Shown here one piece after another: positions 9,093 to 34,947 of a DNA stretch of 58,095 nt. Numbering within the stretch: position 1 is the stretch's first letter; each line of letters starts with the position of its first letter. The notes beneath the pieces were generated by a model. That model was not told the origin of the DNA. It searched no databases and saw only the letters and a program-made list of their open reading frames with translations. Made by a program: the position numbers and the translations under genes. This DNA comes from an uncultured Bacilli bacterium (GTDB lineage Bacteria > Bacillota_I > Bacilli_A > RF39 > UBA660), in NCBI GenBank assembly GCA_947623825.1, contig CANQHQ010000004.1, positions 1 through 58,095 of the forward strand. The letters are read 5' to 3'.

Positions 9093-9322
9093 AAAAAAAC
9101 TCCTCCTTACTGATTATAAGGACGAGTTTACCCGCGGTACCACCTTAGTTCATTCTAAAGAATGCGCTTCATTTTGGTATAACGAAACCATCATCGAAAA
9201 TTCTTACTCTTCTTTCAGAATTTCAGCTCCATCGCTACCCATAAAAAGGTTTTTATCTATTTTCACCAACCATAGACTCTCTTCCAAAAACTTCTTTTTA
9301 TTCCTCGACTTCCTCGCTTTTC
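9093..9322 (-). promoter_or_regulatory. T-box leader (tRNA-sensing riboswitch) with terminator/antiterminator
   Basis: Minus strand has AACTAAGGTGGTACCGCGGG (T-box core at 9133-9144). Stem I has AGAGAG (9277-9282) and a GGTGAAAA distal loop (9260-9267). An F-box-like CGTTA is present. The terminator is ACTCGTCCTTA-N7-TAAGGAGGAGT followed by T7 and then ATG. Confidence 0.82.
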
Positions 9323-9328
9323 AGTATG

Positions 9329-16147: not shown

Positions 16148-18430
16148 CTATACGTTTTCTTTTCTTTTTAAAGTAACGATTCCAACGAAAGTAGCAAAGA
16201 AACTAACCAAAGCAAGTACGAAGTAATTCATTACTCCATCATACGTACTCGGTACTTCTATTGTACTAGATTCAAATACGGCTTGAATCGATGTATTTTT
16301 CATTAACTCTTCGTCTTCCGAAATTGCTTCTTTCGTATCTGCATTGATAAATCCTTTCCATGTCTTTCCTTCTACCTTCTTCAATTGTTCGGCACTCGCT
16401 AATTCTTTTAACGAGGTTCCTTCTAGAACGGTTTCCGTCCAAGTGTTGCCTTTTTCATCGATAAAGGTAAGAGTAATTTCATAGATTGCCTTTAATTTTG
16501 TTGTAGTGGTAATGACTGTATCCAAGTCTACGGTATTTCCGTCTTCATCTACAAATCTAGCAAAATTTTCTGCGTCCATGAATTTTTTCAATTCTGAACC
16601 ATTCTCACCATCCAAAATGGCTTGTAATGTTATACCTTCAGAAGTCTCATCATAATTCACTTCTACTAGATTCTTCCTATCATTTCCTTCAACAGAAATA
16701 ACAATCTTATAGACTGGTTTTAAATTTATTTCTTGAGTAACGGCACTCTCTAAATCAAAAACTTCTTCACCAACTTTAAAATACTTAAAGTTTTCATCTT
16801 GCATAATTGAATCCAAAATACTAATGTTTTTTAGTATGGTTCCATCCTCTACGGTTCCGATGAAACTACCATTGACAGAGATTTTAACTAATACCTTTTT
16901 CGTTAATATGGTGTTTTCGTCGATTCGCTCCGCTGAAGAAGTAGCTTTTCCATCGATGTAATACGTAACGGCATATTTTCCTACAGGAACTGTTTTCATC
17001 ACAGTATCTAGGATTGTTCCATCTGCGGAAACAGCATTTCCAAGACGTGTCTTTTCGGCATTTTTACCTAAATCTAGAGTATATACTACATCGTCTAATG
17101 TTACAGTTACGGTATAGAATGTTTCCAAATCTATATTTTGCGTAATTGGATCTGTATCTTTTACTTCTTCTTTCCCAGAAACCGTTCTAAAATGAAGTGT
17201 TTTTCCTTCTTTATTAAAATCTCCGAATGTTGGAATATCTTGTAACGTTTCATTTTCATCCAAATCGTAAGGTTGTCCATTGATTGTCACCTTGACACCC
17301 CACTCGATAGAAATGGTTCCATTTTCATTCCATGGAGTTTGATCTGTTACTTCTTCTCCACTCTCTTTTACAAACTTTTGAAAGGTCTTATTTTTTTGTC
17401 CTTCTGTTTTAGCCTTTTCTAGCGCATTTTTTAATTCTTCCTTGGTGCTTTGACCCCATGTATCTCCTTTGTTTAGTTCGTAATTGACACCGTCGAAGTT
17501 TACATAAACGACTTCTGTTCCCTCTTTTGTAATGTATTTTACTCCCGCTTTATTGGGAATCTCTTTGTTATAACCTTCCGGTATAATGATGGATGCACCG
17601 TCTTTGGCATAGGTAATTGCCTTTTCGGTCATGGTTTCATCCCCTTCGATGACAGAATCGTTATTGGCAAAAAAAGTTACATTTCCAGTTACCCCTTCAA
17701 TGTGTAATTTTGCCTTCCCTGTCGTGTCATCGAGTGATTCTAATCCCCTGATTCCATCTCCTGCATACATCAATCCACGATTCGTCGTTTTCACATTTTT
17801 TACTGTTACTTCAGTGTCATTCTGTCCACCCGGAACAGCAATCAATATGGAACCTTTGCTTAAAGAGAATTTCACATCTTCTATGGTTACCTTTCCTGCT
17901 GCTTGGATTCCAGGAACAAAATTTCCAGAAATTTCCGTATTTTTCACTTCTAGGGTTCTAACTACTCCATCGTCATTTGAATTCTTTACTGCTGCATAAG
18001 TTGATCCAGCCCAAATCGTGATATTTTCTATTTTTAATGTATTACCACTATTGATGACACCAGAACCTGTAGCAGTATTTAGGGTGAGTTTTCCTCCTTC
18101 ATTGGTACTAGTAATCGTTAAATCCCCTAAATTCTGAATTCCGTACCCATTTCCATGTTGTGCCTTTAATTCTTGCCCATTTAGATCAATGGTGACATTC
18201 TTTCCTGCGGGAATCACAAAAGTATGTTCTAACGATATTGTACTAAGCAATTGAATTGTGATAGGACTTTCTGCCGCCTCGATTTGCTGCTCTACTTGAT
18301 CCCAAGAAGAACAGTCTTGTCCATTTACTTTTGCGATAGAAGCTTCTTCTGCCTGTACTTCTAGGAATCCAAAACACATAACGACCGCCAAAGCAATGAG
18401 TCCAACAAGTTTTGAGATTTTTTTCGTCAT
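16148..18430 (-). CDS. Cell-surface protein: signal peptide, parallel beta-helix-like domain, several Listeria/Bacteroides-type repeats, C-terminal TM anchor
   Basis: Signal peptide ending LEVQA|EE. An NxGxL-rich repetitive N-terminal third. Repeats of the form Y.V.V....Y.L. Tail is VPSTYDG + hydrophobic helix + KRKENV, with no LPXTG. Confidence 0.8.
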   Translation of the reverse strand: MTKKISKLVGLIALAVVMCFGFLEVQAEEASIAKVNGQDCSSWDQVEQQIEAAESPITIQLLSTISLEHTFVIPAGKNVTIDLNGQELKAQHGNGYGIQNLGDLTITSTNEGGKLTLNTATGSGVINSGNTLKIENITIWAGSTYAAVKNSNDDGVVRTLEVKNTEISGNFVPGIQAAGKVTIEDVKFSLSKGSILIAVPGGQNDTEVTVKNVKTTNRGLMYAGDGIRGLESLDDTTGKAKLHIEGVTGNVTFFANNDSVIEGDETMTEKAITYAKDGASIIIPEGYNKEIPNKAGVKYITKEGTEVVYVNFDGVNYELNKGDTWGQSTKEELKNALEKAKTEGQKNKTFQKFVKESGEEVTDQTPWNENGTISIEWGVKVTINGQPYDLDENETLQDIPTFGDFNKEGKTLHFRTVSGKEEVKDTDPITQNIDLETFYTVTVTLDDVVYTLDLGKNAEKTRLGNAVSADGTILDTVMKTVPVGKYAVTYYIDGKATSSAERIDENTILTKKVLVKISVNGSFIGTVEDGTILKNISILDSIMQDENFKYFKVGEEVFDLESAVTQEINLKPVYKIVISVEGNDRKNLVEVNYDETSEGITLQAILDGENGSELKKFMDAENFARFVDEDGNTVDLDTVITTTTKLKAIYEITLTFIDEKGNTWTETVLEGTSLKELASAEQLKKVEGKTWKGFINADTKEAISEDEELMKNTSIQAVFESSTIEVPSTYDGVMNYFVLALVSFFATFVGIVTLKRKENV

Positions 18431-20456: not shown

Positions 20457-22073
20457 TTATTCAGAATTTTTCCTACGAATTTCTTTTACTTCTTCATTTT
20501 CTAAATATTCATCGTAAGGAAGACGACGGTCGATAATCCCATTTTTCGGAAGAATTTCGATGATACGATTCGCAATGGTTTCAATTAACTGATGGTCATG
20601 AGAAGCCAAAAGAAGTTCTGAATTATATTTCATTAATCCGTTATTGAGGGAAGTAATACTCTCTAAATCCAAGTGATTGGTTGGTTCATCGAGAATTAAA
20701 AAATTAGCGGCTTCCAACATACATTTTGATAACATACAGCGAGCCTTTTCTCCTCCCGATAAAACAGGTACTTTTTTGAAAACATCCTCCCCCGAAAACA
20801 ACATTCTTCCTAAAAATCCTCGAAGAATGGTTTCATCATCTACGGAATAATACTCTCCTATCCATTCCATAATGGTCTCTTCTTTTTTAAAATAATCGCT
20901 ATTGTCCTGAGGAAAATAACTTTTCGTAATGGTCTTTCCCCAAGTCACTTCTCCACTATCTGGTTCGATTTCTCCCATTAAGATACGGAACAGTGTGGTT
21001 TTCGCAATATCATCCGGTCCCACAAAAGCAATTTTATCTCCCTTTAAAACCGTAAAAGAGACTTGGTCCAACACCTTTCTTCCATCGATGGTTTTAGAAA
21101 GATTGGTTACTGTCAAAATTTCTTTTCCACTTGGTCTTTCTGGCGTAAAATCAATATACGGATACTTTCTAGAAGAAGGGACAATCTCTTCTAGTTCAAT
21201 TTTTTCTAACATTTTTTTCCGACTCGTAGCTTGACGACTCTTGGAAGCATTTGCTGAAAATCTCGCAATGAAATCTTGCAATTCTTTGATTTTTTCTTCT
21301 TTCTTTTTATTGGATTCTTTCATTTGTTTCAAAGCCAATTGACTCGATTCATACCAAAAATCATAATTTCCTATGTAAAGTTTCATTTTTCCATAATCGA
21401 TATCGACGATATGAGTACAAACCTTATTTAAAAAATGACGGTCGTGACTCACGACGATGACTGTATTTTGATAGTTTATTAGAAATTCTTCTAACCATCG
21501 AATGGCTTCGATATCTAAGTTATTGGTTGGTTCATCTAAAAGAAGAATGTCTGGATTTCCAAACAAAGCCTGAGCCAATAAAACTTTTACTTTCATCTTG
21601 GCAGGAATTTCTTTCATGACGGCATCATGATATTCGACAGGAATCCCTAGATTGGCTAATAACTCTCCTGCTTCACTCTCCGCTTCCCAACCATTGAGTT
21701 CCATGAACTCTGCTTCTAATTCCGCAAGACGCATCCCATCTGCATCCGTAAATTCTGTATGAGAATAAAGTTCTTCTTTTTCTTTACTAATCTTATATAA
21801 CTTTTCATTTCCCATGATGACTGTTTCCATCACAGTATGATCATCATAAGCATAATGATTCTGTTTCAAAACGGAAAGCCGTGCTCCTTTGGCTAAGATA
21901 ATTTCTCCACTACTTGTTTCTATTTCTCCACTTAAAAGTTTTAAAAACGTACTTTTCCCAGCTCCATTGGCACCAATCAAACCATAACAATTTCCATTAG
22001 TAAATTTTAGATTTACGTCTTCAAATAATGTTCTTTTCCCAAAACGTAATGTCACATCTCTTGCTTCTATCAT
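20457..22073 (-). CDS. ABC-F family ATPase (YkpA/YbiT-like, no membrane domain)
   Basis: Two ABC cassettes (GANGAGKST, and LSGGEKARC with LILDEPTNHLD) joined by a charged linker. Start set to the ATG at 22073 (GGAGG SD 5 nt upstream). Confidence 0.92.
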   Translation of the reverse strand: MIEARDVTLRFGKRTLFEDVNLKFTNGNCYGLIGANGAGKSTFLKLLSGEIETSSGEIILAKGARLSVLKQNHYAYDDHTVMETVIMGNEKLYKISKEKEELYSHTEFTDADGMRLAELEAEFMELNGWEAESEAGELLANLGIPVEYHDAVMKEIPAKMKVKVLLAQALFGNPDILLLDEPTNNLDIEAIRWLEEFLINYQNTVIVVSHDRHFLNKVCTHIVDIDYGKMKLYIGNYDFWYESSQLALKQMKESNKKKEEKIKELQDFIARFSANASKSRQATSRKKMLEKIELEEIVPSSRKYPYIDFTPERPSGKEILTVTNLSKTIDGRKVLDQVSFTVLKGDKIAFVGPDDIAKTTLFRILMGEIEPDSGEVTWGKTITKSYFPQDNSDYFKKEETIMEWIGEYYSVDDETILRGFLGRMLFSGEDVFKKVPVLSGGEKARCMLSKCMLEAANFLILDEPTNHLDLESITSLNNGLMKYNSELLLASHDHQLIETIANRIIEILPKNGIIDRRLPYDEYLENEEVKEIRRKNSE

Positions 22074-22312
22074 AGGTACCTCCAAAACTATTCATAATTT
22101 TACTATACTTTTTTTCTCATGGCAAGATGAAAGAAGCGATTTCTTCCTTTATCATGCAGTATTCCGTTGAAAGGAAACCATAATAAAATATGTCCACCTT
22201 TTCATTTTCATTCAAATCATAGACAAAAGAGAGAATCATTTACTATATTTTTGGTTCTCCTTCAACTTCGATTATTCTTTATCAATTCTATTACTTTTTT
22301 TCCATATGCCGA

Positions 22313-22344
22313 CAAAAAAGGTGTAGTTTCCACTACGCCTTTTA
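22313..22344 (-). terminator. Probable terminator after the 1934-aa gene (hairpin usable on both strands)
   Basis: Plus strand AAAAAAGGTGTAG-TTTCC-CTACGCCTTTT. The minus-strand version has one C.A mismatch followed by T6. Confidence 0.4.
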
Positions 22345-22398
22345 TTGTTCATCATAAGCATGTTTGTGAATGTTTTTTCTCACCATCTTGGAAATATT

Positions 22399-25300
22399 TT
22401 ATTCCATTACTACTTCTGATGGAAACTTTGGTCCTTGCACTTCTGATGGTACTTTATCAGCTTCCGTTCCCTCAGGTGTTTTAACATATTTAACAGTAAC
22501 GTCACTTAGATTAGTATGTAAATTAATACCACTAAAGTCCGTGTGTGAATCATCCCACTCTATCGTAATGTTACCACGACCAAACTTAATATCTGCCTTA
22601 TCACCAGAAGCTTCTTTTTCAATTTTCATAGCGCATGAAGTTTTTACGGTGTTTCCAAGGAATCTTATATCTGGTTCACCATCTTCACCATCTTGTATTA
22701 CAGCATCCTCAGCAAAACCATTAATGATAATTACGCATTTAGGGTCATCACCATCTGCTTTAGGGAAGTTATTCAAGTAAAGATCAGATCCTTCACCTAA
22801 CTTTCCAGTTACATAGACATAAGATTTTGTGATATTTTTAGCATCAAATCCCTTTGAACCACCCGTACCCATATAGCGAATATCTACTACAGAGTGATTA
22901 TTTGTATATTTGATAGCATAGTCAACAGCATTCTCGCCTGTGTTTGATAAGGCACCTTGCCATAAAGCAAATTTTTTACCTTTCACTTCGATTAACGAAT
23001 CTTGACCTTTCTCAGCTGCAATCTCTAAATTAACACGATTAATGAAGACACTTTCAGCTGAATCCGCAACAACAATCTTTTTAGCCTTTATTATCGTATT
23101 ACTATTTGGTTGGCCAATAATAGAAACACCATTTGTAATCTTAAGTTCTTCTTCACCATAATCGATAACGGCATTTCCATCGGTAATATAAATAGCTTTG
23201 ACACTAGGGTCATTTATTGCTCCTTTAAATCCTTCTGTATCTGAAACTTTCTTAACGCCATCAGCAAGTGTTACCTTGAATACTGCCCAATAGTGAGCAT
23301 CTTCCGTAACTTTCAATGCATCTTTATTTACTGCTCCAGCAGGAAGATTATCTCCCGTTAATACTTGGCTAGAATCTTTCGTAAATCCAATTAAAGTATA
23401 AGTTTCACCATAATGTTCAAAAGTACCAAATACTGGACTTGTCGGAACCTTTAGATTTTCACCGTAATAATTATATTTCGTATCAGCTTTTCTATATGGA
23501 CCTTGGTAGTTATAGATTACTGTCGTATAAATCTTTGCGTTTTTAGAATCGTTATAATAGTTGAAGTAAGTATAATCTGAATCTGTTTCTTTGGTATCAC
23601 TATCCGCTGCATTAAAGTTTATTTTTTCCTTCACGACTTGAGAAGCTTTTCCATTTCCACTATCAGTTAAATTAACAGTAGCTCCTGTCTTAGCCGTTCT
23701 TACGATAGGATGTTCATATGTTTCTTTTTCATATGTTAAGTTACTAGCCGTAAGTTTTCCGCCTTCTTTGACATCGATAGCAACGTCTAATTTGTTGTCA
23801 GGATCAGTTGCTACAAATTTTAATTTGGTTGCCGTTAGTTCACCATTACTCTCAACATCAATCAATGTTTTGGTGTTTTCTCCTGCTTTTAGAGAAAGAT
23901 TTTCAATTTTTACACCAGTAGAACTTACTTTAAAGATAGCGTTACCTGTTTTAGAAGTTAACATCGTTCCGTCAGAACTATTGATATCTACGGCTCTATT
24001 GATATCTATTGTTTCTTCAACTTCGAATGATTTTTCAATATAAATCGTTTTATAGTCTTTCGTTAAGGCTTGTTTCAAAGTTTCTTCATCTACTACACTT
24101 ACAATATCAGAATCAAAGTTAAATTCATAAACTGTTTTATCTGCATTAGCCAATTGAACAGAATTATCTAAATCTCCAATGGTTATACTAAAGTTTTTAT
24201 CATTTAAAACCATGTTGTTTAAAGTGTATTCTGCTTCTCCACCTTCGTCTTTTAAGACTTCAGCAAATAAGGCTTTCGCACCAGCTTGAATTTTTCCTTT
24301 TAGAGCAGTTCCTGTTTCATCTAAACTAATAGGTTGAACCTCATTATTTGCACCATCTTTAGTAAATACTACTTGTTTACCGTCAGATGAAAGAGTAATC
24401 TCTTTTACTTCACCTCTTTGAAGAATGTAAGCGATGGCTCCAGGGATGCTAGTATCATTTAAGATACTTAACTTCGATTTAGGATTTTTTACATCAAATG
24501 TAATGGTAGTGTCTGTTTTAGAAATAGCAAAATGAGAAGAGAAATCACTCGAGTAATCTGTTTCAGCACTTCCTAAATCCGAAATAACATCTGTAAGGAA
24601 TTTATCTACATCAAGCGTATAATGTGCTTGTAATGTAATATCTTCATTTTCTCCTGTTTTTGAATCTTCTTGGCCTAATACAAACGGTGTCTCTGCACTT
24701 CCAGTTGTCTTATACCAATAATCAAAATCATGATAAGCATAATTTTTTCCTTCAAATGTTGGTGCTAATGTTTCTGGAATTACTTCATCCTCATAAACCT
24801 TAGCTTCTTTTGTCTCAATCTTACCTGTTGTTTCATCAAAATATTGGAAAGTGATTTTATTTTCAGTTTGATAGTCTAAGTTTTCATAAGATATCGTGTA
24901 TTCCAATGGTAAAAATGCATCTTCTTCACCATCAAAGTCTATCTCATATTTAAGTTTAGAAGTCTCACTATCTTTATTAAGTTTAAATAGAACTAATACC
25001 CATCCTTGACTATATTCCTCATCTTTAGGTTTGTACGCAGACATCTTTTTTCCAGACTCATTATATAGAGTTATAGTCCACTTATTCTTATAAGCTGTTA
25101 GATTACTATCTGTTGGGAAAGATATTTTCATTGGAACAAAGTATCCAGTAGGATTAGAAAATCCTGTTGTACCATTCAATGTTTGTTCCTTTATTTTTCC
25201 TTCAATACCATCTTTATAATGATTATCTGGTTGATCAGTGTTTGTGTGAATGTTTACATTTTCAACTGTCTCTACATTAAATCCATATCCCGTTAATTCT

Positions 25301-28203
25301 GTTTTTGCGGAAGATTCCTCTGTTAAATCTGCTTTTTTAAGAACATCATAGTCAACAGATCCACGAGAATAATCTTGGAATTTTAAATCACTATAGTCTA
25401 TTGTTACAGTATATGGAGCGTACTCTTCCTTGTCTTCTCCATCTAAGTCAACTGTGATTGTAAACCATTTGTCAGTATCGGCAAGTGCAGAACCATCTTC
25501 GTTCGTAGTTTTTAATGCTTTTAAGATATAAAGAAGATGTGAACTATTAAAATCATCACCAAATACCTTTAAATATGAAGTGCTTTCTGTATCATGTACG
25601 AACTTGATATTAATTTTCTGATTTCCATCATTATTATAATCTTGTGGAGCATTTATTAATTTTAGACCTAATCCTAAATAATAAAGTCGATTAGGAGAAT
25701 CAAATGGCTCCTCATCTTTCCAATCTCCCTCTTCGAGAATTGGTAAAACTCCACTTACCTTATATTTATGTGAATCCGTTTCATCGGCAGTTACACTTAC
25801 AGAATATCCATCTTCGGTATTATACCAACCAGTATTTGGAAATTGTGATTCTACTTCTTTGTCAATAGATTCAACTGTAAATATTGATGATTTTTCAAAG
25901 GTTACTTTACTATAATCGATTGTATAAAGTGCTGGTAAATAGTTATTACCATCCCCATCGTAATCGACACTATAATATACTTTACATGTGTCTCCATTAT
26001 CTTTACAGTTTGGATCACTTTCAATTTGGAATAAAACAGTTAAACTACCGTCGTCATTATATTCACTTGACTGAAATTCTTTCTTCTTACTACCCGTTAA
26101 GTTAGCGCTTGCTAGACGGGCTATTTTAACTTTGTCTTTGCTAACTCCTGTTGGAAGTGTAAAGGTAAAGTCAAAGTAATATCCCGTTTTCTTGTCATCT
26201 CCAAAAGCCTCACCATTTAACAATACTTGTTCAACAAGCGTTCCAGTTAATTCTCCATTCGTAAGAGATAATTCTTTATTTACCTCGCTCTTGTAACCCC
26301 ATTTTGTAAATGTCTCTTTGTCTTTTGCACTAGCTTTATTTAGGGAAACTTGAGGAATCGTTTTTTCTTGAAGTGTTAATTCACTCCAATCAAATGTAAG
26401 GGTATATGGAGTATATTCTTCTCCCTCTCCATCCATATCGACGATAATCGTAAATGTCTTATCTTCTGCATCTTTATGTAGATGTCTTAAAATATATAAT
26501 ACATCATTACCATCGAAATTATCAGCTGTTAGAGTTTTGGATTCTTCTCCTTCATGAATAAATTGAACTGTTGTTTTGTTATCAGTATCCTTTTTAGCTG
26601 TTTCTGTCTTGATTACAAATGGCAAATAGTAACCAGTTTTATCTTCTCCTTCAAATGGATCTTTACTTTCAGTAAATGTTTCTAGAATTGGAAGTAACCC
26701 TTTTACTTTTACCTTTGTTCCTTCCGTTTTAAATTGAACATCGAAATGATCAGGTTGTTTCCATCCATAAGTTTCCTCTAATGGATTTTTTGCTAAACCA
26801 CCATCAGCAACATCTAAAACACTAAATTTTGAACTTTTAACAAAAGTTAAATCTTTGTAATTAATTGTGATTGTTTGAGATTCTAAGTATTCCTTTCCTT
26901 CTCCATCCCAATCGACAGTAATTTCAATTTTGCAATCCGTATCTCCCTCGCATTTATCTTTTAACTTGAATATTTCAGTAAATACGCCTTGTTCGTTAAA
27001 ATATTCCTTACCATACGTTAATTCTTTTTCACCTTTCACAGTTACTTTAACACCTTCTGGTACAGTAACTAAATCATCTGGCTTCTTAAGATTGAACACA
27101 AAGAAGTAACCATCTTGAGCCTCAGTACTAAATCCACCTGCTCTCATGCTTTGTAATTCTACTTTTCCAGTTAATTTATATGTACCATCTTCTTGTGAAA
27201 CTAATTGATAATGCTTATTATCTCCAAATGAGGTGTAACCCCAATCTTGTAAAGTAGCTTTATCTTCAGTTGAAATATCATCTTCCTTGTCAGTCAAAGA
27301 TACCTTTGAGTCTTCTTGGAAAGTTAAACCACTTAAATCTAATGTATAGTCTGTTGCTCCATATTCTGTACCATCACCATCGAGATCGACACTAACTTCA
27401 AAAATCTTATCATCACTCGTAGGACTTACAGAACATAATACAAGTAATCCAGATTTACCTTCTACATTCTGTACATCGAAACTATCATACCCTATTGTTT
27501 TAGTTCTATTATTACCTTTTAAGATCACTTTCGTAGCATCTGTAGCATTAGGTATTTCGACAACAAAACCAAAATAGTATCCTGTAGCATCATCACCATT
27601 AAATACAGATGGATCGATGTTATCATATTTTAATAATAATCCAGTTAATTTACCAGTTGCAGGATCATAACTAAGTTCTTCACTTAGAGTGTTATTACCA
27701 CCTGTAATTTTTAAAGTTCCTTCAAAAGCATTTTTATAAGTAGTTTCAGTTGTCTTTGTTAAATCAACTGTCGCTTTTGATTTTTCAGCATAATACTTAT
27801 AATCAATGTAGCGAATATTGACTGTTTTACCACTACTCAAATCTAATTTTGTTTCACCTAAAACGGTAGTCGGTTCTTTCCATCCTGTATATTGAAAGTT
27901 TTCAGACTTTCTCTCTATCTTCTGAACCGCCATTTTGCCATAGATTGAAGTAGCATTTGTATAGCCATCGGCATCAGTAATTCCGGTAATACTTCTTGCT
28001 GCCAACATAAGATCTTGGGCAGTCAAAGTATGTTTGGAAGTAAAAGCATACTCACCAATGACATATACATACTCTGCATCTGGTTCTTTTTGTGCCACTT
28101 CTTTTCCGAGTTCTTCTAATGTCATTTCTCTTGCGGACACAGAAGTCATTGTCAAAAAGAGTGTCATAAAAGTAAAGAGTAGATATTTGATTTCTCTTTT
28201 CAT
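22399..28203 (-). CDS. Giant secreted repeat protein (1934 aa), paralogue of the 1180-aa protein
   Basis: Signal peptide ...MTSVSA|RE. In aa 25-152, 91 of 128 residues are identical to the 1180-aa protein by hand count. Six tandem 157-173-aa modules end near aa 295, 454, 611, 769, 942 and 1111, each with TGYYF and VDxDG[DE]GxEY..YT[IL]D[YLW]S.LTF. Flg_new-like repeats follow, and the C-terminal third looks like a beta-helix. No LPXTG and no TM anchor. Confidence 0.9.
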   Translation of the reverse strand: MKREIKYLLFTFMTLFLTMTSVSAREMTLEELGKEVAQKEPDAEYVYVIGEYAFTSKHTLTAQDLMLAARSITGITDADGYTNATSIYGKMAVQKIERKSENFQYTGWKEPTTVLGETKLDLSSGKTVNIRYIDYKYYAEKSKATVDLTKTTETTYKNAFEGTLKITGGNNTLSEELSYDPATGKLTGLLLKYDNIDPSVFNGDDATGYYFGFVVEIPNATDATKVILKGNNRTKTIGYDSFDVQNVEGKSGLLVLCSVSPTSDDKIFEVSVDLDGDGTEYGATDYTLDLSGLTFQEDSKVSLTDKEDDISTEDKATLQDWGYTSFGDNKHYQLVSQEDGTYKLTGKVELQSMRAGGFSTEAQDGYFFVFNLKKPDDLVTVPEGVKVTVKGEKELTYGKEYFNEQGVFTEIFKLKDKCEGDTDCKIEITVDWDGEGKEYLESQTITINYKDLTFVKSSKFSVLDVADGGLAKNPLEETYGWKQPDHFDVQFKTEGTKVKVKGLLPILETFTESKDPFEGEDKTGYYLPFVIKTETAKKDTDNKTTVQFIHEGEESKTLTADNFDGNDVLYILRHLHKDAEDKTFTIIVDMDGEGEEYTPYTLTFDWSELTLQEKTIPQVSLNKASAKDKETFTKWGYKSEVNKELSLTNGELTGTLVEQVLLNGEAFGDDKKTGYYFDFTFTLPTGVSKDKVKIARLASANLTGSKKKEFQSSEYNDDGSLTVLFQIESDPNCKDNGDTCKVYYSVDYDGDGNNYLPALYTIDYSKVTFEKSSIFTVESIDKEVESQFPNTGWYNTEDGYSVSVTADETDSHKYKVSGVLPILEEGDWKDEEPFDSPNRLYYLGLGLKLINAPQDYNNDGNQKINIKFVHDTESTSYLKVFGDDFNSSHLLYILKALKTTNEDGSALADTDKWFTITVDLDGEDKEEYAPYTVTIDYSDLKFQDYSRGSVDYDVLKKADLTEESSAKTELTGYGFNVETVENVNIHTNTDQPDNHYKDGIEGKIKEQTLNGTTGFSNPTGYFVPMKISFPTDSNLTAYKNKWTITLYNESGKKMSAYKPKDEEYSQGWVLVLFKLNKDSETSKLKYEIDFDGEEDAFLPLEYTISYENLDYQTENKITFQYFDETTGKIETKEAKVYEDEVIPETLAPTFEGKNYAYHDFDYWYKTTGSAETPFVLGQEDSKTGENEDITLQAHYTLDVDKFLTDVISDLGSAETDYSSDFSSHFAISKTDTTITFDVKNPKSKLSILNDTSIPGAIAYILQRGEVKEITLSSDGKQVVFTKDGANNEVQPISLDETGTALKGKIQAGAKALFAEVLKDEGGEAEYTLNNMVLNDKNFSITIGDLDNSVQLANADKTVYEFNFDSDIVSVVDEETLKQALTKDYKTIYIEKSFEVEETIDINRAVDINSSDGTMLTSKTGNAIFKVSSTGVKIENLSLKAGENTKTLIDVESNGELTATKLKFVATDPDNKLDVAIDVKEGGKLTASNLTYEKETYEHPIVRTAKTGATVNLTDSGNGKASQVVKEKINFNAADSDTKETDSDYTYFNYYNDSKNAKIYTTVIYNYQGPYRKADTKYNYYGENLKVPTSPVFGTFEHYGETYTLIGFTKDSSQVLTGDNLPAGAVNKDALKVTEDAHYWAVFKVTLADGVKKVSDTEGFKGAINDPSVKAIYITDGNAVIDYGEEELKITNGVSIIGQPNSNTIIKAKKIVVADSAESVFINRVNLEIAAEKGQDSLIEVKGKKFALWQGALSNTGENAVDYAIKYTNNHSVVDIRYMGTGGSKGFDAKNITKSYVYVTGKLGEGSDLYLNNFPKADGDDPKCVIIINGFAEDAVIQDGEDGEPDIRFLGNTVKTSCAMKIEKEASGDKADIKFGRGNITIEWDDSHTDFSGINLHTNLSDVTVKYVKTPEGTEADKVPSEVQGPKFPSEVVME

Positions 28204-28233
28204 TTTCTTTTCTCCTTTCTTCTGTATTTTGTC

Positions 28234-28836
28234 TTATTGTTTATTATTATTCTTTATTATTTTAGAATTCTTGTTTTCTTTTTTCTTTTTGATCATTACA
28301 ACCGCACTAACGATTAATCCGATTACAACAATTGTTAGGATTAAGACGATTCCCACGGTTGTCCAAAGAGGTAAACTTTCGTCAGAGTGATATATTTCTT
28401 TATTTGTTTCTAAGCACTCTTCCATATCCCCATTATTTCTTGCTCTAGCAACAATGTCACAGTAACTATCGGCTTCATTATATGCTGTAGCAGCTTCTTT
28501 AATTTTGTCTTTTACTTGGTCATTGAAACCAACAAAGTAGTTCGATCCAATAATTGTTATAGGTAAATCATCTTCTTTAGAAAACAATTTATCTTTTATA
28601 GTTTTAAATAGTTCTTCCTTATCTGTTTTATCGAAATATTCAAAGCTCACTGTGTTTTCCTTATTTGAATACTCTTGTAACCACTCTTTTTCCTCAGCAC
28701 ATAATTCGCAATTCTCTTCTCCAAATAAGTACACTTTTAAATCTGCATATTGGGAAGAATTCGTAACTACTGCATTTACTTCCAACGAGGGTAATAGAAG
28801 AACACAAGCAAGAATTACAAATAAACTTTTTTTCAT
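28234..28836 (-). CDS. Exported, C-terminally membrane-anchored thioredoxin/glutaredoxin-fold CxxC protein
   Basis: Signal peptide ...LEVNA|VV. VYLFGEENCELCAEEKEWL CxxC at the start of a helix, with LPITIIGSNYFVGF (cis-Pro region). C-terminal TM helix plus a K-rich tail. Confidence 0.7.
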   Translation of the reverse strand: MKKSLFVILACVLLLPSLEVNAVVTNSSQYADLKVYLFGEENCELCAEEKEWLQEYSNKENTVSFEYFDKTDKEELFKTIKDKLFSKEDDLPITIIGSNYFVGFNDQVKDKIKEAATAYNEADSYCDIVARARNNGDMEECLETNKEIYHSDESLPLWTTVGIVLILTIVVIGLIVSAVVMIKKKKENKNSKIIKNNNKQ

Positions 28837-28860
28837 GTTACCTCCTAGTTAGTTAAAATT

Positions 28861-31800
28861 TTATTCTGATTTGTGACTCCCTGTATGTCTTGACCACCAA
28901 GCATCATAGGTAGTTTTAAATTCTTGTAATTGTTTTAAGCCTGTAGTTTCATCTACACTCTCACCTAAAATTACTTTTACAGGATCCTCTACTTTGGTAG
29001 TTTCAAAATCTTGGAAAGCTAAATCAATCTTACGATTTTGTTTACTATTAATAGTAATATCCGTTACCATGCTAGTAACATAATTATCTTTGTTAACTTT
29101 TACGGTAAGTTCAAGATCACTATCTACTGTATAGGCTATTTTTTCATCACTATCAGGATCAAACATAGGATCATATCTATTATTTAGCCATCTCGTTAAG
29201 TATTCTTTTGAAATAATTACTTTATAGCAAGCTTCATCACCTGAAGATTCAGGTAATTTAGTAACTTCTTTTATACTATCGATATCAACTAAGATTTTAA
29301 GTTCTCCTACGCCAATACCAGAGTAACCTCCAAAGCTATATCTCCAACCATTTAGATATACGCCTGTATCATCTACAGTAATACCATCTTTTCCTTTATC
29401 TTTATTAATTGTATAGAACTCAAAGGTATCACTATGAGCAATTGAATGATCAGTTAACTTATCGTATTCATCCACTGGATAATATTTATTTCCTTTTAGA
29501 CTAAACGTATAAGCTTTAGTTCCTGGAATATCACTATCTGACCATACAGTATATTTGCGATTTAAATCTTTATCGTATTTTTCAACGTAGAAATCATTTT
29601 TCGATGGTAAAACATTTTTTGATGTTATAGTTAAACTTCTTACGTCGTAAGTACGATTCGCTGCTAATTGAACTTGGTCTTTTTCATTTAAAGCTAAATT
29701 ATTGTAATCCACGGAATAAGTAGATGGTGTATAATCGTCGCTTTCTGGACCATCCTTATCGATAACGATTGTATATACACGATTATCTACTGAAGTTGCT
29801 GTTAATTCAAGTTCGACTGTTTCATCGTTTCCTATCTGATTAATAGCTGAAATACTTGCTACCATAGGATTTTCCGTGAAGGTACTACCATTATATAAAT
29901 ACGTTTGTGTAGTTTCACCTAATGTAGTTGTAATCGTTGTTTCATTAGGAATAAGGTCTTTTGTCTGGACAGCAATTTTGAACTTATCATTTAAAGTTTC
30001 TTGATTATCGTTAAGAAGTCCTGCAACGTGAATTGTATAGCCATCTTGGTTTGTACGTACACCAGCATTTTCGGTAGTTTGAACACTCATCTTCGTAGCT
30101 TCTTTAAGTTCTAATCCACCGATATTCAAATAATAAGTTTCACTATCGTATTCTATACCCTCACCATCGATATCTACAGTAATAGGAATAAAGCATTCTT
30201 TACTTTGACTATCTTCTTTACATTTAGCAACGTTATCTTTGTTCAAAGAATATAAAACAGTTAAACTATCTCCTTCATTAGCAAGCGTAATTGTTTTTTG
30301 TTTATGATCTAAGAATGCTGGATCCGTTGTCACTTTACAATTTTCTCCAGTCTTGCATGAAATTGAAATCGTTGTTTTACCTGGCATTACTAAACTAGGC
30401 TTCACGTTATAGACAAAGTAATAACCTGTCTTTTCTTCACCTTCAAAAACTTTTACTTTATCTTCCATTAACCTATTAATAGTTCCTCTTAAAGTGTAAC
30501 CATTATATTTAGAATCGGTAGATTTTTCTAACGTAACATCGTAGTTAGCTGGAAATGTATAACCATAATCACCTGTAATAGTAGCTAAGTCTTCTTGTGG
30601 TAAAAGTTCTTTATTTACAACTGATATTTCTTCAGATACTTTTTGGAACGTAATTTCTGTTAAATCCATACGAATAGTATAAGGTTTATAATCCTCATTA
30701 TTTGGTTCCATATCTACAACGATATCAAATGAATTATCGTCTTTATTAGGATCTAACCATTTTAAAAGATCTATTTCATCTACACCTACGTAACCATCAC
30801 CTTTTAATTCACTACCTGCAACTGTTACAACAGAATTTTCCGTCATTGCTTTTGGTAATTTAATAGCATAACCCATGTAATATCCAGTCGTTTGTGTAGG
30901 TTCAAAAATATTATCTTTCGTTAAATTAATTTTTGCAACTTGACCAGTTACTTTAACCGTATTATCTGTTTGACTAAATTTAAGGGTATGAGCTGCATTT
31001 GCAGTCCAACCATAAGTACTTGTTAAAGAAGTTTGACCTGCTGAATCAAGTTCAGCAACATTTGATTTTGATTCTTTAATAAGTTTTAATTCCGTATAAT
31101 CAAATGTATATTCTACTGGACCATACTCTCTTTTTGCAGCACCATCACTATCGACTGTTATTTTAAATTGTTTGCTTTCTGTATCTGTTAATTGAAGAAT
31201 GATAGTGAACTTATCTTCGACTAAGCTATTGTAACCTACCGTTTTAGTTCCACCAGCACATCCAAGACAAGGAATTGTAATTTCTATATCTTCTGTAATT
31301 TTTTCTGGACTAAGTGTAAATACAACGAATTTTCCAGTTGTTGCATCTCCATTAAATCCTTTCAACGTTTTTTCAACGACTGAGCCATTGAATTTCAAAA
31401 CGCCGTTTTCTTCATCTAAGGTATACGTATCATTCTGAGATCTAACATAATCAAAACTATTTTTTAATGAGTTGACTTCATCTTGTGGAATATTTTCATG
31501 TGAGAAAGTTGCAACTGTATCTTTTTCAACTGTAAGTCCCGATACATCGATCGTATAAACTGTTGGTTCATATTCTGTGCCGTTGCCATCGATATCCACA
31601 GTTAGTTTTAATTCCTTCGTTTTTCCTGGATTATAAGATACTAAAATTGCAATCGTCGAACTACCGTTGCTATTCTGGATATCCCATGCATCCCATGAAA
31701 CTGACTTTTCCCCTATTTTTAAAGTCGTATTCTCATTTGCTCCCTCAACTGTTAAGGCATAAGCAAAATAGTAACCTGTAACCTCATCATCTGGGAAAAT

Positions 31801-32403
31801 AGTATTATCAATCGTTGTATTTTTTAATAAGTGACCAGTTATTTTACCACTAAATTTTCCAGTACTCTCGTATTTTAAATTTTGAGTTGATTGGCCATTA
31901 CCATCATATTTTACACTTGTTAAATAGTTTTTTAAGACTTCTTCCGTAGTTGTTTTTTCTAGATCCACTGTCATCTTAGCTTGTTCAGCAATAAATTGAT
32001 AATCGATATAGCGAATATCTACGCTTTTGCTATCGCTTAAATCTAATTTTTCTTTTCCTAATGCTGTAGTTGGAGTTTCCCATCCAGTGTAGGTAAAGTT
32101 TTCTGATTTTCTAGCGATTTTATAAACAGCCATTTTACCATAAACTGGTTTGTCGTTTGTTTTTCCATCCTCTGGCGTAATTCCTTGAATACTTTTCGCT
32201 GCAACCATCAAATCTTGGGCAGTTAATTTGTGCTTCGAGGTAAACGCATACTGTCCTACAACATATACATATTCTGCTGTCGATTCCTTTGCTTCTACTT
32301 CTTTTCCTAATTCCTCCAATGTCATTTGCCTTGCATAGGCTGGAGTAATAGACAAAAAGAAAGCAACCAAAGCAAAAAATGTAAGTTTGATTCCTTTCCT
32401 CAT
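28861..32403 (-). CDS. Giant secreted repeat protein (1180 aa), paralogue of the 1934-aa protein
   Basis: Signal peptide ...TPAYA|RQ and the same conserved N-terminal domain. Five modules end near aa 292, 441, 587, 766 and 905 (VDIDGNGTEY, VDSDGAAKREY, VDMEPNNEDY, VDIDGEGIEY, IDKDGPESDDY). The 18 nt spanning SD and start codon (CATTTTCTTTTCTCCTTT on plus) are identical to those at 28201-28218. Confidence 0.9.
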   Translation of the reverse strand: MRKGIKLTFFALVAFFLSITPAYARQMTLEELGKEVEAKESTAEYVYVVGQYAFTSKHKLTAQDLMVAAKSIQGITPEDGKTNDKPVYGKMAVYKIARKSENFTYTGWETPTTALGKEKLDLSDSKSVDIRYIDYQFIAEQAKMTVDLEKTTTEEVLKNYLTSVKYDGNGQSTQNLKYESTGKFSGKITGHLLKNTTIDNTIFPDDEVTGYYFAYALTVEGANENTTLKIGEKSVSWDAWDIQNSNGSSTIAILVSYNPGKTKELKLTVDIDGNGTEYEPTVYTIDVSGLTVEKDTVATFSHENIPQDEVNSLKNSFDYVRSQNDTYTLDEENGVLKFNGSVVEKTLKGFNGDATTGKFVVFTLSPEKITEDIEITIPCLGCAGGTKTVGYNSLVEDKFTIILQLTDTESKQFKITVDSDGAAKREYGPVEYTFDYTELKLIKESKSNVAELDSAGQTSLTSTYGWTANAAHTLKFSQTDNTVKVTGQVAKINLTKDNIFEPTQTTGYYMGYAIKLPKAMTENSVVTVAGSELKGDGYVGVDEIDLLKWLDPNKDDNSFDIVVDMEPNNEDYKPYTIRMDLTEITFQKVSEEISVVNKELLPQEDLATITGDYGYTFPANYDVTLEKSTDSKYNGYTLRGTINRLMEDKVKVFEGEEKTGYYFVYNVKPSLVMPGKTTISISCKTGENCKVTTDPAFLDHKQKTITLANEGDSLTVLYSLNKDNVAKCKEDSQSKECFIPITVDIDGEGIEYDSETYYLNIGGLELKEATKMSVQTTENAGVRTNQDGYTIHVAGLLNDNQETLNDKFKIAVQTKDLIPNETTITTTLGETTQTYLYNGSTFTENPMVASISAINQIGNDETVELELTATSVDNRVYTIVIDKDGPESDDYTPSTYSVDYNNLALNEKDQVQLAANRTYDVRSLTITSKNVLPSKNDFYVEKYDKDLNRKYTVWSDSDIPGTKAYTFSLKGNKYYPVDEYDKLTDHSIAHSDTFEFYTINKDKGKDGITVDDTGVYLNGWRYSFGGYSGIGVGELKILVDIDSIKEVTKLPESSGDEACYKVIISKEYLTRWLNNRYDPMFDPDSDEKIAYTVDSDLELTVKVNKDNYVTSMVTDITINSKQNRKIDLAFQDFETTKVEDPVKVILGESVDETTGLKQLQEFKTTYDAWWSRHTGSHKSE

Positions 32404-32427
32404 TTTCTTTTCTCCTTTATCTTCATT

Positions 32428-33351
32428 TTAGCGATACTCTACTGTTGCATTTACGCAATTACCTGCTGTAAAACATACTTGTGCATTTCCTACGCCTGTA
32501 TTTACTGAGTCGGCTGCAACCGTTCCAGCATTTTTATGTACTTCTTTTCCATTGTAGATAAATCCAACGTAATCACTGAATGTAGTTCCATCTTTTTGTA
32601 CTTCAAAAGTATACTGCATCACTCCACCTGTTAGTTCTTGATGAATTGCCGTTAATATTACCTTATACACTGGGTCAGGTATTGGCGTCGGTGTTGGTGG
32701 AACTGGGGTTGGAGTTGGCGTTGGATTGGATGGACGACTACTTGGTTTTTTTGTCGGTGCCGGAGTTTCTGTTGGTGTAGGCGTTGGTTTTGGTTCCTCT
32801 GTCACGGTTACCGTACATGAAGCCTGATACTTTCCATCTTTGCTTCTAACAGTTATCGTCACTACTCCACTTTTTAGTCCTATGATATTTCCATCTTTAT
32901 CTACGGTTGCAATACTTTCATCACTTGAAACGTATTCCAAATCATCCTCTGATAACCCTTCTGGTAAGGACAAAATATCTAACTTTGCTGTCTCATCCAC
33001 TTTTAGATTCATTTTTGACAAATCTAGTTCTATCTCATCTAAACTCCAATGTGCTTTCAAAGTTATATCTTTCGTAATCTTCGTATCGAAATCAAATAAT
33101 TTATCTTCATAGTACCAACCTGCAAATTGATATCCTTCTTTCGTCGGATTGACTGGCTTATCGATGCGATCATTCTCTTTCACTGTAACACTCTCAATCG
33201 CACTCCCTCCGTCGACATCAAACGTTACTAAATATTCCGGTGTTTTTGTACACCCTTTCATCAATAAAAAGATAACAATTCCAATGATTAGAACGATGAT
33301 AGCAATAGTGAAAATCATTTTAGTATTATGGTTTTCATTTGGTTTACTCAC
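32428..33351 (-). CDS. N-terminally anchored surface protein: Flg_new (Listeria/Bacteroides) repeat, Big_2 Ig-like domain, Pro/Thr linker, unknown C-terminal domain
   Basis: TM helix at aa 12-32. YLVTFDVDGG...GYQFAGWYYEDKLFDF (Flg_new). LKVDETAKL...VSSDESIATVDKDGNIIGLKSGVVTITV (Big_2). PTPTPT linker. GTG start with an AGGAGG SD. Confidence 0.85.
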   Translation of the reverse strand: MSKPNENHNTKMIFTIAIIVLIIGIVIFLLMKGCTKTPEYLVTFDVDGGSAIESVTVKENDRIDKPVNPTKEGYQFAGWYYEDKLFDFDTKITKDITLKAHWSLDEIELDLSKMNLKVDETAKLDILSLPEGLSEDDLEYVSSDESIATVDKDGNIIGLKSGVVTITVRSKDGKYQASCTVTVTEEPKPTPTPTETPAPTKKPSSRPSNPTPTPTPVPPTPTPIPDPVYKVILTAIHQELTGGVMQYTFEVQKDGTTFSDYVGFIYNGKEVHKNAGTVAADSVNTGVGNAQVCFTAGNCVNATVEYR

Positions 33352-33418
33352 ACTTCTTACCTCCTTTTCTTATTTTATTGATTGAAACAAGAATATAGAC
33401 CCTTTCCAATCTACTTAC

Positions 33419-33448
33419 ATTTTAATATGTACCCCCCCCCCATGTCAA
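33419..33448 (-). promoter_or_regulatory. Putative promoter of the surface-protein operon, with a homopolymeric spacer
   Basis: Minus strand TTGACA (33448-33443), 18-nt spacer T-G10-TACATAT, then TAAAAT (33424-33419). It lies about 60 nt upstream of the SD and GTG at 33351. Confidence 0.55.
33432..33441. repeat. C10/G10 homopolymeric tract
   Basis: Read directly as ACCCCCCCCCCATG on the plus strand. I did not notice any other G/C run of 8 or more in the window. Confidence 0.95.
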
Positions 33449-33493
33449 TACCAATGTTTGGTAAAAGGACTTGCAGTCTATGCAAATTCCTTC

Positions 33494-33940
33494 TTATTTT
33501 TTCTTTATAAATTCATAGTATCGGTAATCTCTTCTTGGCTGCAATTCGAAACCAGCGTTCAGTGCTACACAAATACTTTTTAAATTGCTCGGTTCTATTT
33601 TTAAGGAAACCGTTTCACACTCTCGTTCTAAAAGAAAATCGGATACCTCTTCTACTAATCTAGAAGCATATCCTCTATGTTGATGTCTTGGGTGAAGGGC
33701 ATAAGTCAGTTCTCTTTCTTGAAACTGAGATGTTTCAATTTGAAGAAAACCGATTTTGGTTGTCCCTATTTTAAATATGTAACTCGGTGGGGCATCTTTT
33801 TCAAAAACACGAAAAAGATTTCCAAGATATTTTTGACATTCTTCCTCTTGATTCAAAGTTGTGATCCATTGAATATGACCATTCCCTTCTAGATGAATTC
33901 TCTCGAGACGAAAGGACGGTAATATGATTTCTCTTTCCAT
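33494..33940 (-). CDS. GNAT family N-acetyltransferase
   Basis: HQHRGYASRLVEEV acetyl-CoA-binding motif A pattern, ~150 aa. Start set to the second ATG (SD spacing 7). Confidence 0.85.
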   Translation of the reverse strand: MEREIILPSFRLERIHLEGNGHIQWITTLNQEEECQKYLGNLFRVFEKDAPPSYIFKIGTTKIGFLQIETSQFQERELTYALHPRHQHRGYASRLVEEVSDFLLERECETVSLKIEPSNLKSICVALNAGFELQPRRDYRYYEFIKKK

Positions 33941-34015
33941 CCCCATTCCTCCTTTTTGAATGCCTGTATTATATCATATTTTTCTATAGACTCCAAGAGA
34001 TTTTCTTCTTCCAAT

Positions 34016-34300
34016 TTATTCCTGTTCTTGCTTTTGCATTTCTTCTTTTAATCTCTTTTTTCTTTCTGATTCCTTTAATGTATTTCTACTCAATAGAAGA
34101 ATCACAATTGCTGATATCGTTGGAATCAGTAAAAACATGGTAATTGGAAACCATTGATTCATTCCCGCATAGATGAAACAAGGAATCATACAAATTTCTA
34201 ATCCTACTAAGATAAATAAAAAGATAAGGATTTTTTTGCTTTTCGGTTTCTTTTCTTTACGTTCTTTTTTAATTTTTTCTTCTTTTTCATTCTTTTTCAT
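34016..34300 (-). CDS. Hypothetical Lys-rich two-TM protein
   Basis: K/E-rich termini flank two hydrophobic helices. The ATG at 34300 forms an ATGA overlap with the upstream stop; the longer ORF start at 34366 is also possible. Confidence 0.45.
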   Translation of the reverse strand: MKKNEKEEKIKKERKEKKPKSKKILIFLFILVGLEICMIPCFIYAGMNQWFPITMFLLIPTISAIVILLLSRNTLKESERKKRLKEEMQKQEQE

Positions 34301-34947
34301 TCTGCTTCCCCTTTTACTACTTTTTCTATTTTTTGAATGGTTTGATGTTTTCTCTTCATTTGACAAAATGTGACAGAGGCGACAAAGAAACTTCCTAACG
34401 TTCCCATTCCTAGATCTTCCATCGTATCGTTCACTCCTGTTTCTATCACATACTGTGTATCTCCACCAAAGATTTTATCTGAGAAAAATTCGAAGAATTC
34501 CCAGCCGCAGGCAATCGATACCGCAAAAAGAATGGAGAATAGAAAGATAAATTCTTTTCTTTCTTGTTTCAATAGATGAAATCGTTCTAAAAGAATCCAA
34601 GAAATGAGGACACTCATTTCTCCTGAAATCCAATGCATCAGTAAATCAAACCAAGCGATTCTTTGATAGAATCCTAAAACACTTCCTATACTGAGAGTCA
34701 ATAAAACAAAAAGATAATAACAATTTAGTAATGTTGGACTCGGATGATAGGAAAATATTTTATCTATTAGATATGGTATCATAATTATCGGTAGAATGCT
34801 AGTGGTTGTGAGGATTTTTGCAAGGGACATTGTCGAAAAATGAAAAATCAATTGATAGAACATAATGCATAAAGAAGCAAAAATTAGAATGACATTTAAA
34901 ACGGTTTGTTTTTTATTCAATTTCTTTCTCCCCCATCTCCGCGACAT
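34297..34947 (-). CDS. Multi-pass membrane protein (family not assigned)
   Basis: About 6 hydrophobic segments, with a GWEFFEFFSDKIFGGD motif. Overlaps the rmuC end by 35 nt. Confidence 0.6.
   Translation of the reverse strand: MSRRWGRKKLNKKQTVLNVILIFASLCIMFYQLIFHFSTMSLAKILTTTSILPIIMIPYLIDKIFSYHPSPTLLNCYYLFVLLTLSIGSVLGFYQRIAWFDLLMHWISGEMSVLISWILLERFHLLKQERKEFIFLFSILFAVSIACGWEFFEFFSDKIFGGDTQYVIETGVNDTMEDLGMGTLGSFFVASVTFCQMKRKHQTIQKIEKVVKGEAE

Follow-up and report, generated by a model that had tools for sequence, protein, structure and literature searches.

A candidate poly-G promoter-spacer switch upstream of a four-gene surface-protein operon in uncultured gut Bacilli

Repeat-driven contingency loci are known mainly from pathogens, among them Neisseria, Campylobacter, Helicobacter, Treponema and the mycoplasmas. 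In gut commensals, by contrast, most described phase variation involves invertible promoters of Bacteroidales and Clostridia. Here we describe a run of ten G residues (G10) in contig CANQHQ010000004.1 of an uncultured Bacilli bacterium (assembly GCA_947623825.1), of which positions 1 to 58,095 were analyzed; this whole stretch of 58,095 nucleotides (nt) is referred to below as the window. The G10 tract lies between the putative -35 and -10 hexamers upstream of four genes, g1 to g4, and it is probably a slipped-strand contingency switch acting through the promoter spacer of this predicted surface-protein operon. We compared the tract with described homopolymer switches, with the promoters of related operons, and with other explanations for its presence.

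In Mycoplasma hyorhinis, a small-genome, low-GC organism of the same broad class, a poly-A tract in the -35/-10 spacer controls the variable surface proteins of the vlp genes. The vlp system differs from the locus described here in the poly-A nature of the tract, in its organization as several lipoprotein loci of one gene and one tract apiece, and in additional size variation by intragenic repeats. In Neisseria meningitidis, the porA promoter carries a poly-G tract of about 9–11 residues in a sigma-70-type spacer, and slippage around 17 nt gives rise to high, intermediate, or no expression (PMC7864442). The present locus resembles porA in having a G homopolymer inside the putative -35/-10 spacer and in its predicted surface-protein cargo. 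However, porA is a single porin gene of a Gram-negative pathogen with a proven switch, whereas the present tract precedes an 11-kb four-gene operon of uncultured low-GC gut Bacilli that is known from sequence alone. In Treponema pallidum, tp0126 carries a poly-G between the -35 and -10 elements and is transcribed best at 17 nt (PMC7864442). Tracts of 7–11 G coexist within T. pallidum isolates, and the poly-G tracts target surface proteins, including the promoters of tprL and of tprE, G, and J (PMC7864442). The present tract would resemble that of tp0126 in its location between the two hexamers and in its surface-protein targets. T. pallidum, on the other hand, is a spirochaete whose high-GC genome contains poly-G tracts by the dozen, whereas the tract found here was the sole G/C run of at least 6 in all sequence examined per organism.

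Promoter-associated homopolymers have also been described in Gram-positive bacteria. A C-tract in a promoter spacer of Cutibacterium (Propionibacterium) acnes, HPT_37, alters transcript levels (PMC4746626), and so does an intergenic poly-T upstream of the surface-protein gene at Streptococcus pyogenes Spy1336/R28-Spy1337 (PMC7098570). Like the present tract, these are Gram-positive, intergenic, and polymorphic in natural populations; they differ in being shorter (5–7 C) or made up of T, in varying between strains, and in controlling unrelated products. Invertons and epigenetic switching predominated in what our search of the gut-microbiome literature on phase variation returned (PMC10028968, PMC10939037, PMC11741434). 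The sole repeat-driven case in a gut commensal that this search returned was poly-G slippage in the pilus clusters of Bifidobacterium breve (PMC9187656).

The minus strand of the window from 33448 to 33419 reads TTGACA-T-GGGGGGGGGG-TACATAT-TAAAAT, with a spacer of 18 nt. The -35 hexamer TTGACA (33443..33448, minus strand) matches the consensus at 6/6 positions and the -10 hexamer TAAAAT (33419..33424, minus strand) at 5/6. Between them lie a single T (33442), the G10 homopolymer itself (33432..33441, C10 on the plus strand), and the heptamer TACATAT (33425..33431). The homopolymer, which is the proposed slippage site, fills 10 of the 18 spacer positions. Downstream, a strong ribosome-binding site, AAAGGAGGT (33359..33367, minus strand), is found 7 nt ahead of the GTG start codon of g1 at 33351, and 67 nt separate the -10 hexamer from this codon.

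A run scan indicated that G10 is the sole G or C run of at least 6 among all 58,095 bases of the window, which has a G+C content of 33.7%. From base composition, 2.9 runs of at least 6 and 0.0036 runs of at least 10 were expected, and first-order Markov simulations of the window gave expectations of 3.7 runs of at least 6 and 0.01 runs of at least 9. Since G/C runs are rarer than expected, such runs appear to be generally avoided in the window, and G10 stands out against this background. With ten residues it also exceeds the length, about 8 G/C, from which a mononucleotide tract is expected to be hypermutable. No other candidate for a contingency repeat was detected in the window, in which we found only A/T runs of up to 9 and low-scoring tandem repeats. 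An initial annotation of the window, made from the sequence alone, had placed the tract in an 18-nt spacer between -35 and -10 hexamers and had noticed no other G/C run of 8 or more. The spacer was borne out by the sequence read, and the absence of other runs holds down to a length of 6. The placement between hexamers agrees at the sequence level with the 11/12 match of this sigma-A-type pair and with a similar arrangement in three other lineages.

Homologues of g1 head similar operons consisting of g1 and giant genes; for nine of them the upstream DNA was retrieved, and every locus was scanned for G/C runs. A scan of genome and metagenome contigs with g1 yielded a distant locus of use, L003, and another, L004, without relevance. 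Among 117 kb of non-redundant DNA of these organisms we found five G/C runs of at least 9, vs. 0.024 expected, and zero runs of 6–8, vs. about 4 expected. All five long runs are located upstream of g1 homologues.

In the window lineage (the window, L001, and L002) the promoter reads TTGACA-T-G10-TACATAT-TAAAAT with a spacer of 18 nt, the -35 hexamer being GTGACA in L002. Another species, represented by L005, has TTGACT-G10-TAGATATGA-TAAAAT and a spacer of 19 nt. Three further loci, L028, L029, and L030, have the arrangement TTGAC-Gn-TAAATATGA-TAAAAT, in which the tract is G9, G10, and G9 and the spacer 17, 18, and 17 nt, respectively; here the first G completes the -35 hexamer. An extended -10 TG occurs in L005 and in L028-30. 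The six contigs L006-L011 read TTGACA-CAATTGTT-G9 or G10-T-TATAAT, with a hexamer match of 12/12 and a spacer of 18 or 19 nt. The promoters of the window, L005, and L028-30 have the TAAAAT -10 hexamer in common and are visibly homologous (TATTGAC..Gn..TA.ATAT..TAAAAT), with g1 proteins just 47–50% identical. Over all, the tract has been kept in the spacer across species whose first-gene products are 41–50% identical. In L006-11 the tract abuts the -10 hexamer and not the -35. This difference in place within the spacer argues that the conserved feature is a long G run in the spacer and not a sequence motif.

The slipped-strand phase switch proposed in the initial annotation thus gains support at the sequence level from the position of the tract, its conservation in orthologues, and a one-base polymorphism described below. 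We also lean, with confidence somewhat above even, toward the broader view that a poly-G spacer switch is a conserved, lineage-wide device of uncultured and probably small-genome gut Bacilli, governing an operon family that has not been described.

The base that follows the tract is T at every locus (33431 in the window; L003, L005, L006-11, and L028-30 likewise), giving a GnT motif. It was reported that a T after a G run mutates to G at rates raised up to 1000-fold (PMC12344412). Such a T-to-G change would lengthen the tract at constant spacer length.

Tract lengths were compared among contigs with near-identical flanks. L006-L011 derive from one metagenome-assembled genome (MAG), one ENA assembly, and the Logan assemblies of four separate runs (ERR10663778-81). 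Across up to 6.4 kb these six contigs show two variable columns, namely the tract (G9 in three contigs and G10 in three) and one single-nucleotide polymorphism, and their T8 and A8 runs are invariant. L029 and L030, which come from different samples, show 9 differences in 4.4 kb, one of them being G10 vs. G9. The natural alleles give spacers of 17 and 18 nt in L030 and L029 and of 18 and 19 nt in L006-L011, lengths that straddle the 17-nt optimum.

Coverage was 2.4–6x in the compared contigs (~2.4x in L001 and L002, 5–6x in the contigs showing the 9/10 difference), and homopolymers are the most indel-prone context on any platform, two points in favor of a sequencing or assembly artefact such as two-color Illumina poly-G or homopolymer miscalls. 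We consider this very unlikely. The tract is internal to contigs, its location agrees between independent assemblies of several samples (ENA, Logan, and NCBI), and it occurs in five species-level lineages with different flanks. Dark-cycle poly-G occurs at read ends and would not assemble reproducibly between two hexamers. As to the length differences, the T8 and A8 runs of L006-11 do not vary, and alternative tract lengths in 3/6 and 1/3 contigs are far above consensus error rates. An artefact as the origin of the tract itself was rejected on the strength of its reproduction in independent assemblies and lineages. The start of L011, 15 nt ahead of the tract, and the end of L020, ~30 nt ahead of it, were also considered as possible branch points from mixed populations; they were left unused, as the offsets misfit the k-mer geometry and coverage is low.

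The same comparison bears on whether the tract is a static promoter element, either structural (such as a rigid G·C block) or regulatory (such as a regulator site), with length differences reflecting neutral drift or noise. Such an element would be conserved across species in the manner of an ordinary cis-element, as the tract is, and the three assemblies from the window lineage all carry G10. A binding site, however, would be expected to keep its position and flanks, whereas the tract adjoins the -35 hexamer in three lineages and the -10 hexamer in another. It is furthermore one of only two variable columns in 6.4 kb of the clonal L006-11 contigs, and G runs of 9–10 are intrinsically slippage-prone. 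The lack of G/C runs of 6–8 elsewhere is the pattern of run avoidance except where mutability is used. Taken together, these data make a fixed element an unlikely explanation.

For the slipped-strand switch, the following course of events is proposed. Mispairing at replication would add or remove one G, and the spacer would follow the tract in length, being 17 nt with G9, 18 nt with G10, and 19 nt with G11. The altered spacer would change the contact of RNA polymerase with both hexamers, and transcription of the whole 11-kb unit would be switched heritably and reversibly, resulting in high, reduced, and very low levels among cells. We infer in this scheme an active promoter formed by the hexamers, an influence of tract length on transcription, frequent and reversible switching within a clone, and a role of the products as surface adhesins. 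Spacers of 17, 18, and 19 nt should differ in strength, and one of 18 nt generally retains activity. Given natural alleles of all three lengths, a graded (rheostat-like) output is as likely as strict ON/OFF switching. The exported cargo, with its Ig-like (immunoglobulin-like) and beta-helix-like features, is of the type that such switches usually control and supports this interpretation.

Several observations weigh against a spacer switch at this locus. The G10 of the window may represent a reduced state rather than OFF, with G9 as the optimum. The TTGACA/TAAAAT pair (11/12) is the top promoter-like match within the 12.5 kb from 22000 to 34500, but the whole window contains 3 matches of at least 11/12 vs. 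6.2 in shuffles, so that a near-consensus hexamer pair alone is not rarer than expected by chance in this AT-rich DNA. The hexamer match was therefore dropped as stand-alone evidence, and the weight rests on its co-occurrence with the tract, on the position in the locus, and on the comparative data. The 9/10 differences are differences in assembly consensus and not read counts, homopolymer sequencing error may contribute to them, and they fall short of proving switching within a clone. Variation in tract length, by which the initial annotation had suggested judging its reading, was found as G9 and G10 in two orthologous lineages with near-identical flanks, but the window lineage has G10 in 3/3 assemblies (the window, L001, and L002), a small sample. 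Contigs of the window lineage were sought by exact-protein matches to g1, to the 150-aa (amino acid) and 148-aa forms of the neighboring GNAT acetyltransferase, and to g3; only L001 and L002 span the tract, and L020, L032, and L033 end before it or begin after it.

To the same side of the balance belong four g1-family loci without the tract, L021-24, L025-27, L031, and L012-17. The first three have ordinary AT-rich promoters. In L012-17, the g1 homologue is internal to a longer operon, and the scanned DNA excludes the start of that operon. By g1 similarity the tract-bearing loci fall into three groups, each with a tract-less relative, and this distribution implies that the tract was gained, lost, or displaced more than once. 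A T-rich length polymorphism of a different type was seen in one of the tract-less family members: L025 and L026 differ from L027 by a 9-nt indel (GGTAATTTTTGGAATTGTTTTTTTAATT vs. GGTAATTTTTTTTTTAATT) about 120 nt before the g1 homologue, in a leader or small open reading frame (ORF) region.

The distant locus L003 is a further difficulty. Its tract reads TCAACC-T-G9-TACTATA-GAAAAT with a spacer of 17 nt and a poor -35 hexamer, and 739 nt separate it from the g1 homologue downstream. Between the two lies an HTH_3 (XRE-like) gene in the opposite orientation. The tract is in the 3' region of this gene and adjoins its terminator hairpin (L003 3145-3190 and 3302-3601), and a separate promoter-like site is present nearer the g1 homologue. 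The L003 tract may be a displaced promoter relic, or it may have a different use; one speculative possibility is a variable antisense promoter facing the HTH regulator gene.

An effect of the tract other than through -35/-10 spacing would accommodate L003, where the tract is outside a good promoter, and also L005, where the spacer is already 19 nt at G10 and thus long for an active promoter. The tract would in that case set the distance or phase of an activator or repressor, or would lie in a 5' leader; action by distance or phase has been proposed for the tracts of opc and of Bordetella fim. In the window, the sequence upstream of the promoter speaks against it. The upstream gene, encoding the GNAT acetyltransferase (33494..33946, minus strand, assigned by domain match), is directly followed after its stop codon by a terminator-like hairpin with UUUU (33464..33493, minus strand). 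The fold of 33500..33445 has a minimum free energy of -15.7 kcal/mol (z = -4.1), and 0/200 shuffles were as stable; a simple terminator scan had missed this hairpin because its U-tail is short. Only 15 nt separate the hairpin from the -35 hexamer, which leaves no room for a promoter upstream of the tract. In addition, four lineages place the tract between good hexamers at a spacing of 17–19 nt, and no regulator gene is adjacent to the promoter in the window. We regard this alternative as quite improbable.

Switching by inversion of the promoter, with an incidental G tract, was also weighed. Invertons of gut Bacteroidales and Clostridia resemble the proposed poly-G spacer switch in generating heritable and reversible surface heterogeneity in gut commensals, where they are the prevailing known form of phase variation (PMC10028968, PMC10939037). 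They differ in acting by site-specific recombination between inverted repeats. No credible pair of inverted repeats bracketing the promoter was found; the best pair (24 nt, 75% complementary) encloses the GNAT gene and not the promoter. There is no recombinase gene among the neighbors in the window, and the promoter has the identical orientation in all assemblies. With neither bracketing repeats nor a neighboring recombinase, inversion was rejected and is almost certainly not the mechanism.

We next describe the genes that the G10 spacer switch would control. The operon spans 33351..22399 on the minus strand (10,953 nt), and its four genes are separated by gaps of 24, 24, and 30 nt. The initial annotation had reported this tight packing and the GTG start at 33351, and the gene coordinates confirmed both. 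A scan for terminator-like sites on the minus strand found none inside the four-gene operon. The transcription unit appears to end at a terminator-like palindrome with T6 (22316..22343, minus strand), 55 nt past the g4 stop codon, and the scan placed a promoter-like site (22125..22097, minus strand) ahead of the next gene, which encodes an ABC-F ATPase and starts at 22085.

The first gene, g1 (32428..33351, minus strand), encodes a 307-aa protein for which domain and topology predictions gave an N-terminal membrane helix, a Flg_new (Listeria-Bacteroides repeat) domain, and a Big_2 Ig-like domain. We collected 106 (about 100) homologues of g1; all are from metagenomes or MAGs, and none is named. 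In every one of them an [LF]L[KR]GC (or RSC) motif closes the N-terminal membrane helix (33250-33262 in the window, g1 residues 29-34). The invariant Cys of this motif is positioned like the lipobox Cys of lipoproteins, with an atypical basic residue at -2.

The second and fourth genes encode giant proteins. The product of g2 (28861..32403, minus strand; 1180 aa) has a predicted signal peptide and tandem beta-sandwich (Ig-like) modules in the structural model, and it is a paralogue of the g4 product, to which it is 32% identical across 985 residues. The g4 product (22399..28203, minus strand; 1934 aa) is predicted to have a signal peptide, an N-terminal domain and repeated modules in common with g2, and a beta-helix-like C-terminal region. 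Searches of g2 and g4 against Pfam and PDB sequences gave no match. The AlphaFold model of the first 436 mature residues of g2, with a predicted local distance difference test (pLDDT) score of 75.7, is a string of beta-sandwich modules, and its best matches among PDB structures are tandem Ig-like arrays (titin, sidekick, KIR, ICAM, and protocadherin). The C-terminal 635 residues of g4 were modelled with a pLDDT of 72.3. The matches of this region are weak (best E 1.7e-3), and all are right-handed beta-helix proteins, with the Lactobacillus reuteri SRRP adhesin first, followed by tailspike depolymerases, PL6 lyases, and pneumococcal PfbA. The g2/g4 family comprises 194 representative clusters among 1.84 billion; nearly all members are long and have the N-terminal domain in common.

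The third gene, g3 (28234..28836, minus strand), encodes a 200-aa protein with a predicted signal peptide, C-terminal membrane helix, and basic tail. A glutaredoxin-like match (PF05768, E 0.0046) is below the cut-off. The 178-aa product of a gene in L012 (L012 4320-4856) is 31% identical to g3, and the CxxC of g3 (CELC) is replaced by STEY in that homologue. A role of g3 as a dedicated thiol-disulfide oxidoreductase was dropped in view of the sub-threshold match and the absence of CxxC from the L012 homologue. The g3-type small membrane-anchored protein is, judging from these sequences, a conserved accessory gene product of the operons.

The initial annotation had called all four products exported or surface proteins. 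A signal peptide or membrane anchor is predicted on 4/4 of them, in line with that statement, although the surface location itself is a deduction. No LPXTG motif was found in g1–g4. The interpretation of the products as exported, adhesin-like surface proteins is well founded. The combination of a Flg_new/Big_2 protein, giant proteins without Pfam matches, and a small membrane protein may constitute a previously undescribed operon family.

The proposed mechanism itself is textbook and will not surprise a specialist; the locus differs from the known systems in its host, in its cargo of giant proteins, and in being the sole G/C run of the sequence examined, and its conservation across species and natural polymorphism add to its value as a readily testable case. 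An uncultured gut lineage appears to use a classical poly-G spacer switch, which is conserved across species and would control about 3,600 residues of surface protein per operon, the giant proteins belonging to no described family. If this is true, a repeat-driven contingency locus will have been found directly in gut metagenomes, in a commensal Firmicutes-type lineage, and metagenomes alone will have sufficed for its discovery and testing. The G count in reads would then be a simple marker for the ON/OFF states of a major surface structure in vivo, and tract length in metagenomic reads would report on the selection that these surface proteins experience in the host. The giant proteins would be targets of strong fluctuating selection, through host immunity, phage, or adhesion trade-offs.

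Other sequence differences were observed in and near the operon in further samples of the strain to which the window belongs. In L002, the -35 hexamer is GTGACA instead of TTGACA (L002 1631, equivalent to 33448 of the window). In L001, codon 764 of g2 carries a TTA-to-TAA nonsense change (about 6238-6240), and an 8-nt deletion splits rmuC (about 35,4xx of the window). In L032, g4 is split into 1766 and 175 aa. The changes in the promoter, g2, and g4 may be knock-downs or knock-outs of the unit, although all these differences may be errors at ~2.4–2.9x coverage. If they are real, those in the operon suggest that expression is selected against in ways that do not involve the tract.

A comparison of L028 with L030 revealed a mosaic pattern. 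All 87 differences fall at locus positions 389-1572, within the main part of the g1 homologue and the initial ~120 nt of the giant gene, and no difference occurs in the promoter/tract region or in the subsequent 2.8 kb. Recombination, or diversifying selection acting on the exposed portion of g1, is suggested by this distribution.

The window is otherwise ordinary chromosome and carries valS, lon, tig, infB, and nusA. The closest relatives by NusA are 85–92% identical and bear labels no finer than 'Firmicutes bacterium' or 'bacterium'; the MAG containing L003 is labelled 'uncultured Bacilli bacterium'. The neighbors of the operon encode GreA, an HD-domain protein, ABC-F, GNAT, DUF2238, RmuC, VTT-domain proteins, and PrsW. 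A cluster at 38211-41427 (minus strand) encodes a 545-aa protein with faint LapA/GLUG-like matches, an S24/S26 signal-peptidase-like protein (39790-40326), and two small proteins without a family match; it resembles SipW-type clusters of a dedicated signal peptidase and fibre proteins. Located between tig and greA, a 760-aa ORF (16148-18430, minus strand) matched no family in NCBIfam or Pfam. At 9115-9323 (minus strand) we detected a T-box leader with a score of 131.6 bits (gathering score 93); it precedes a 247-aa ORF (8349-9092), after which comes valS (5796-8330).

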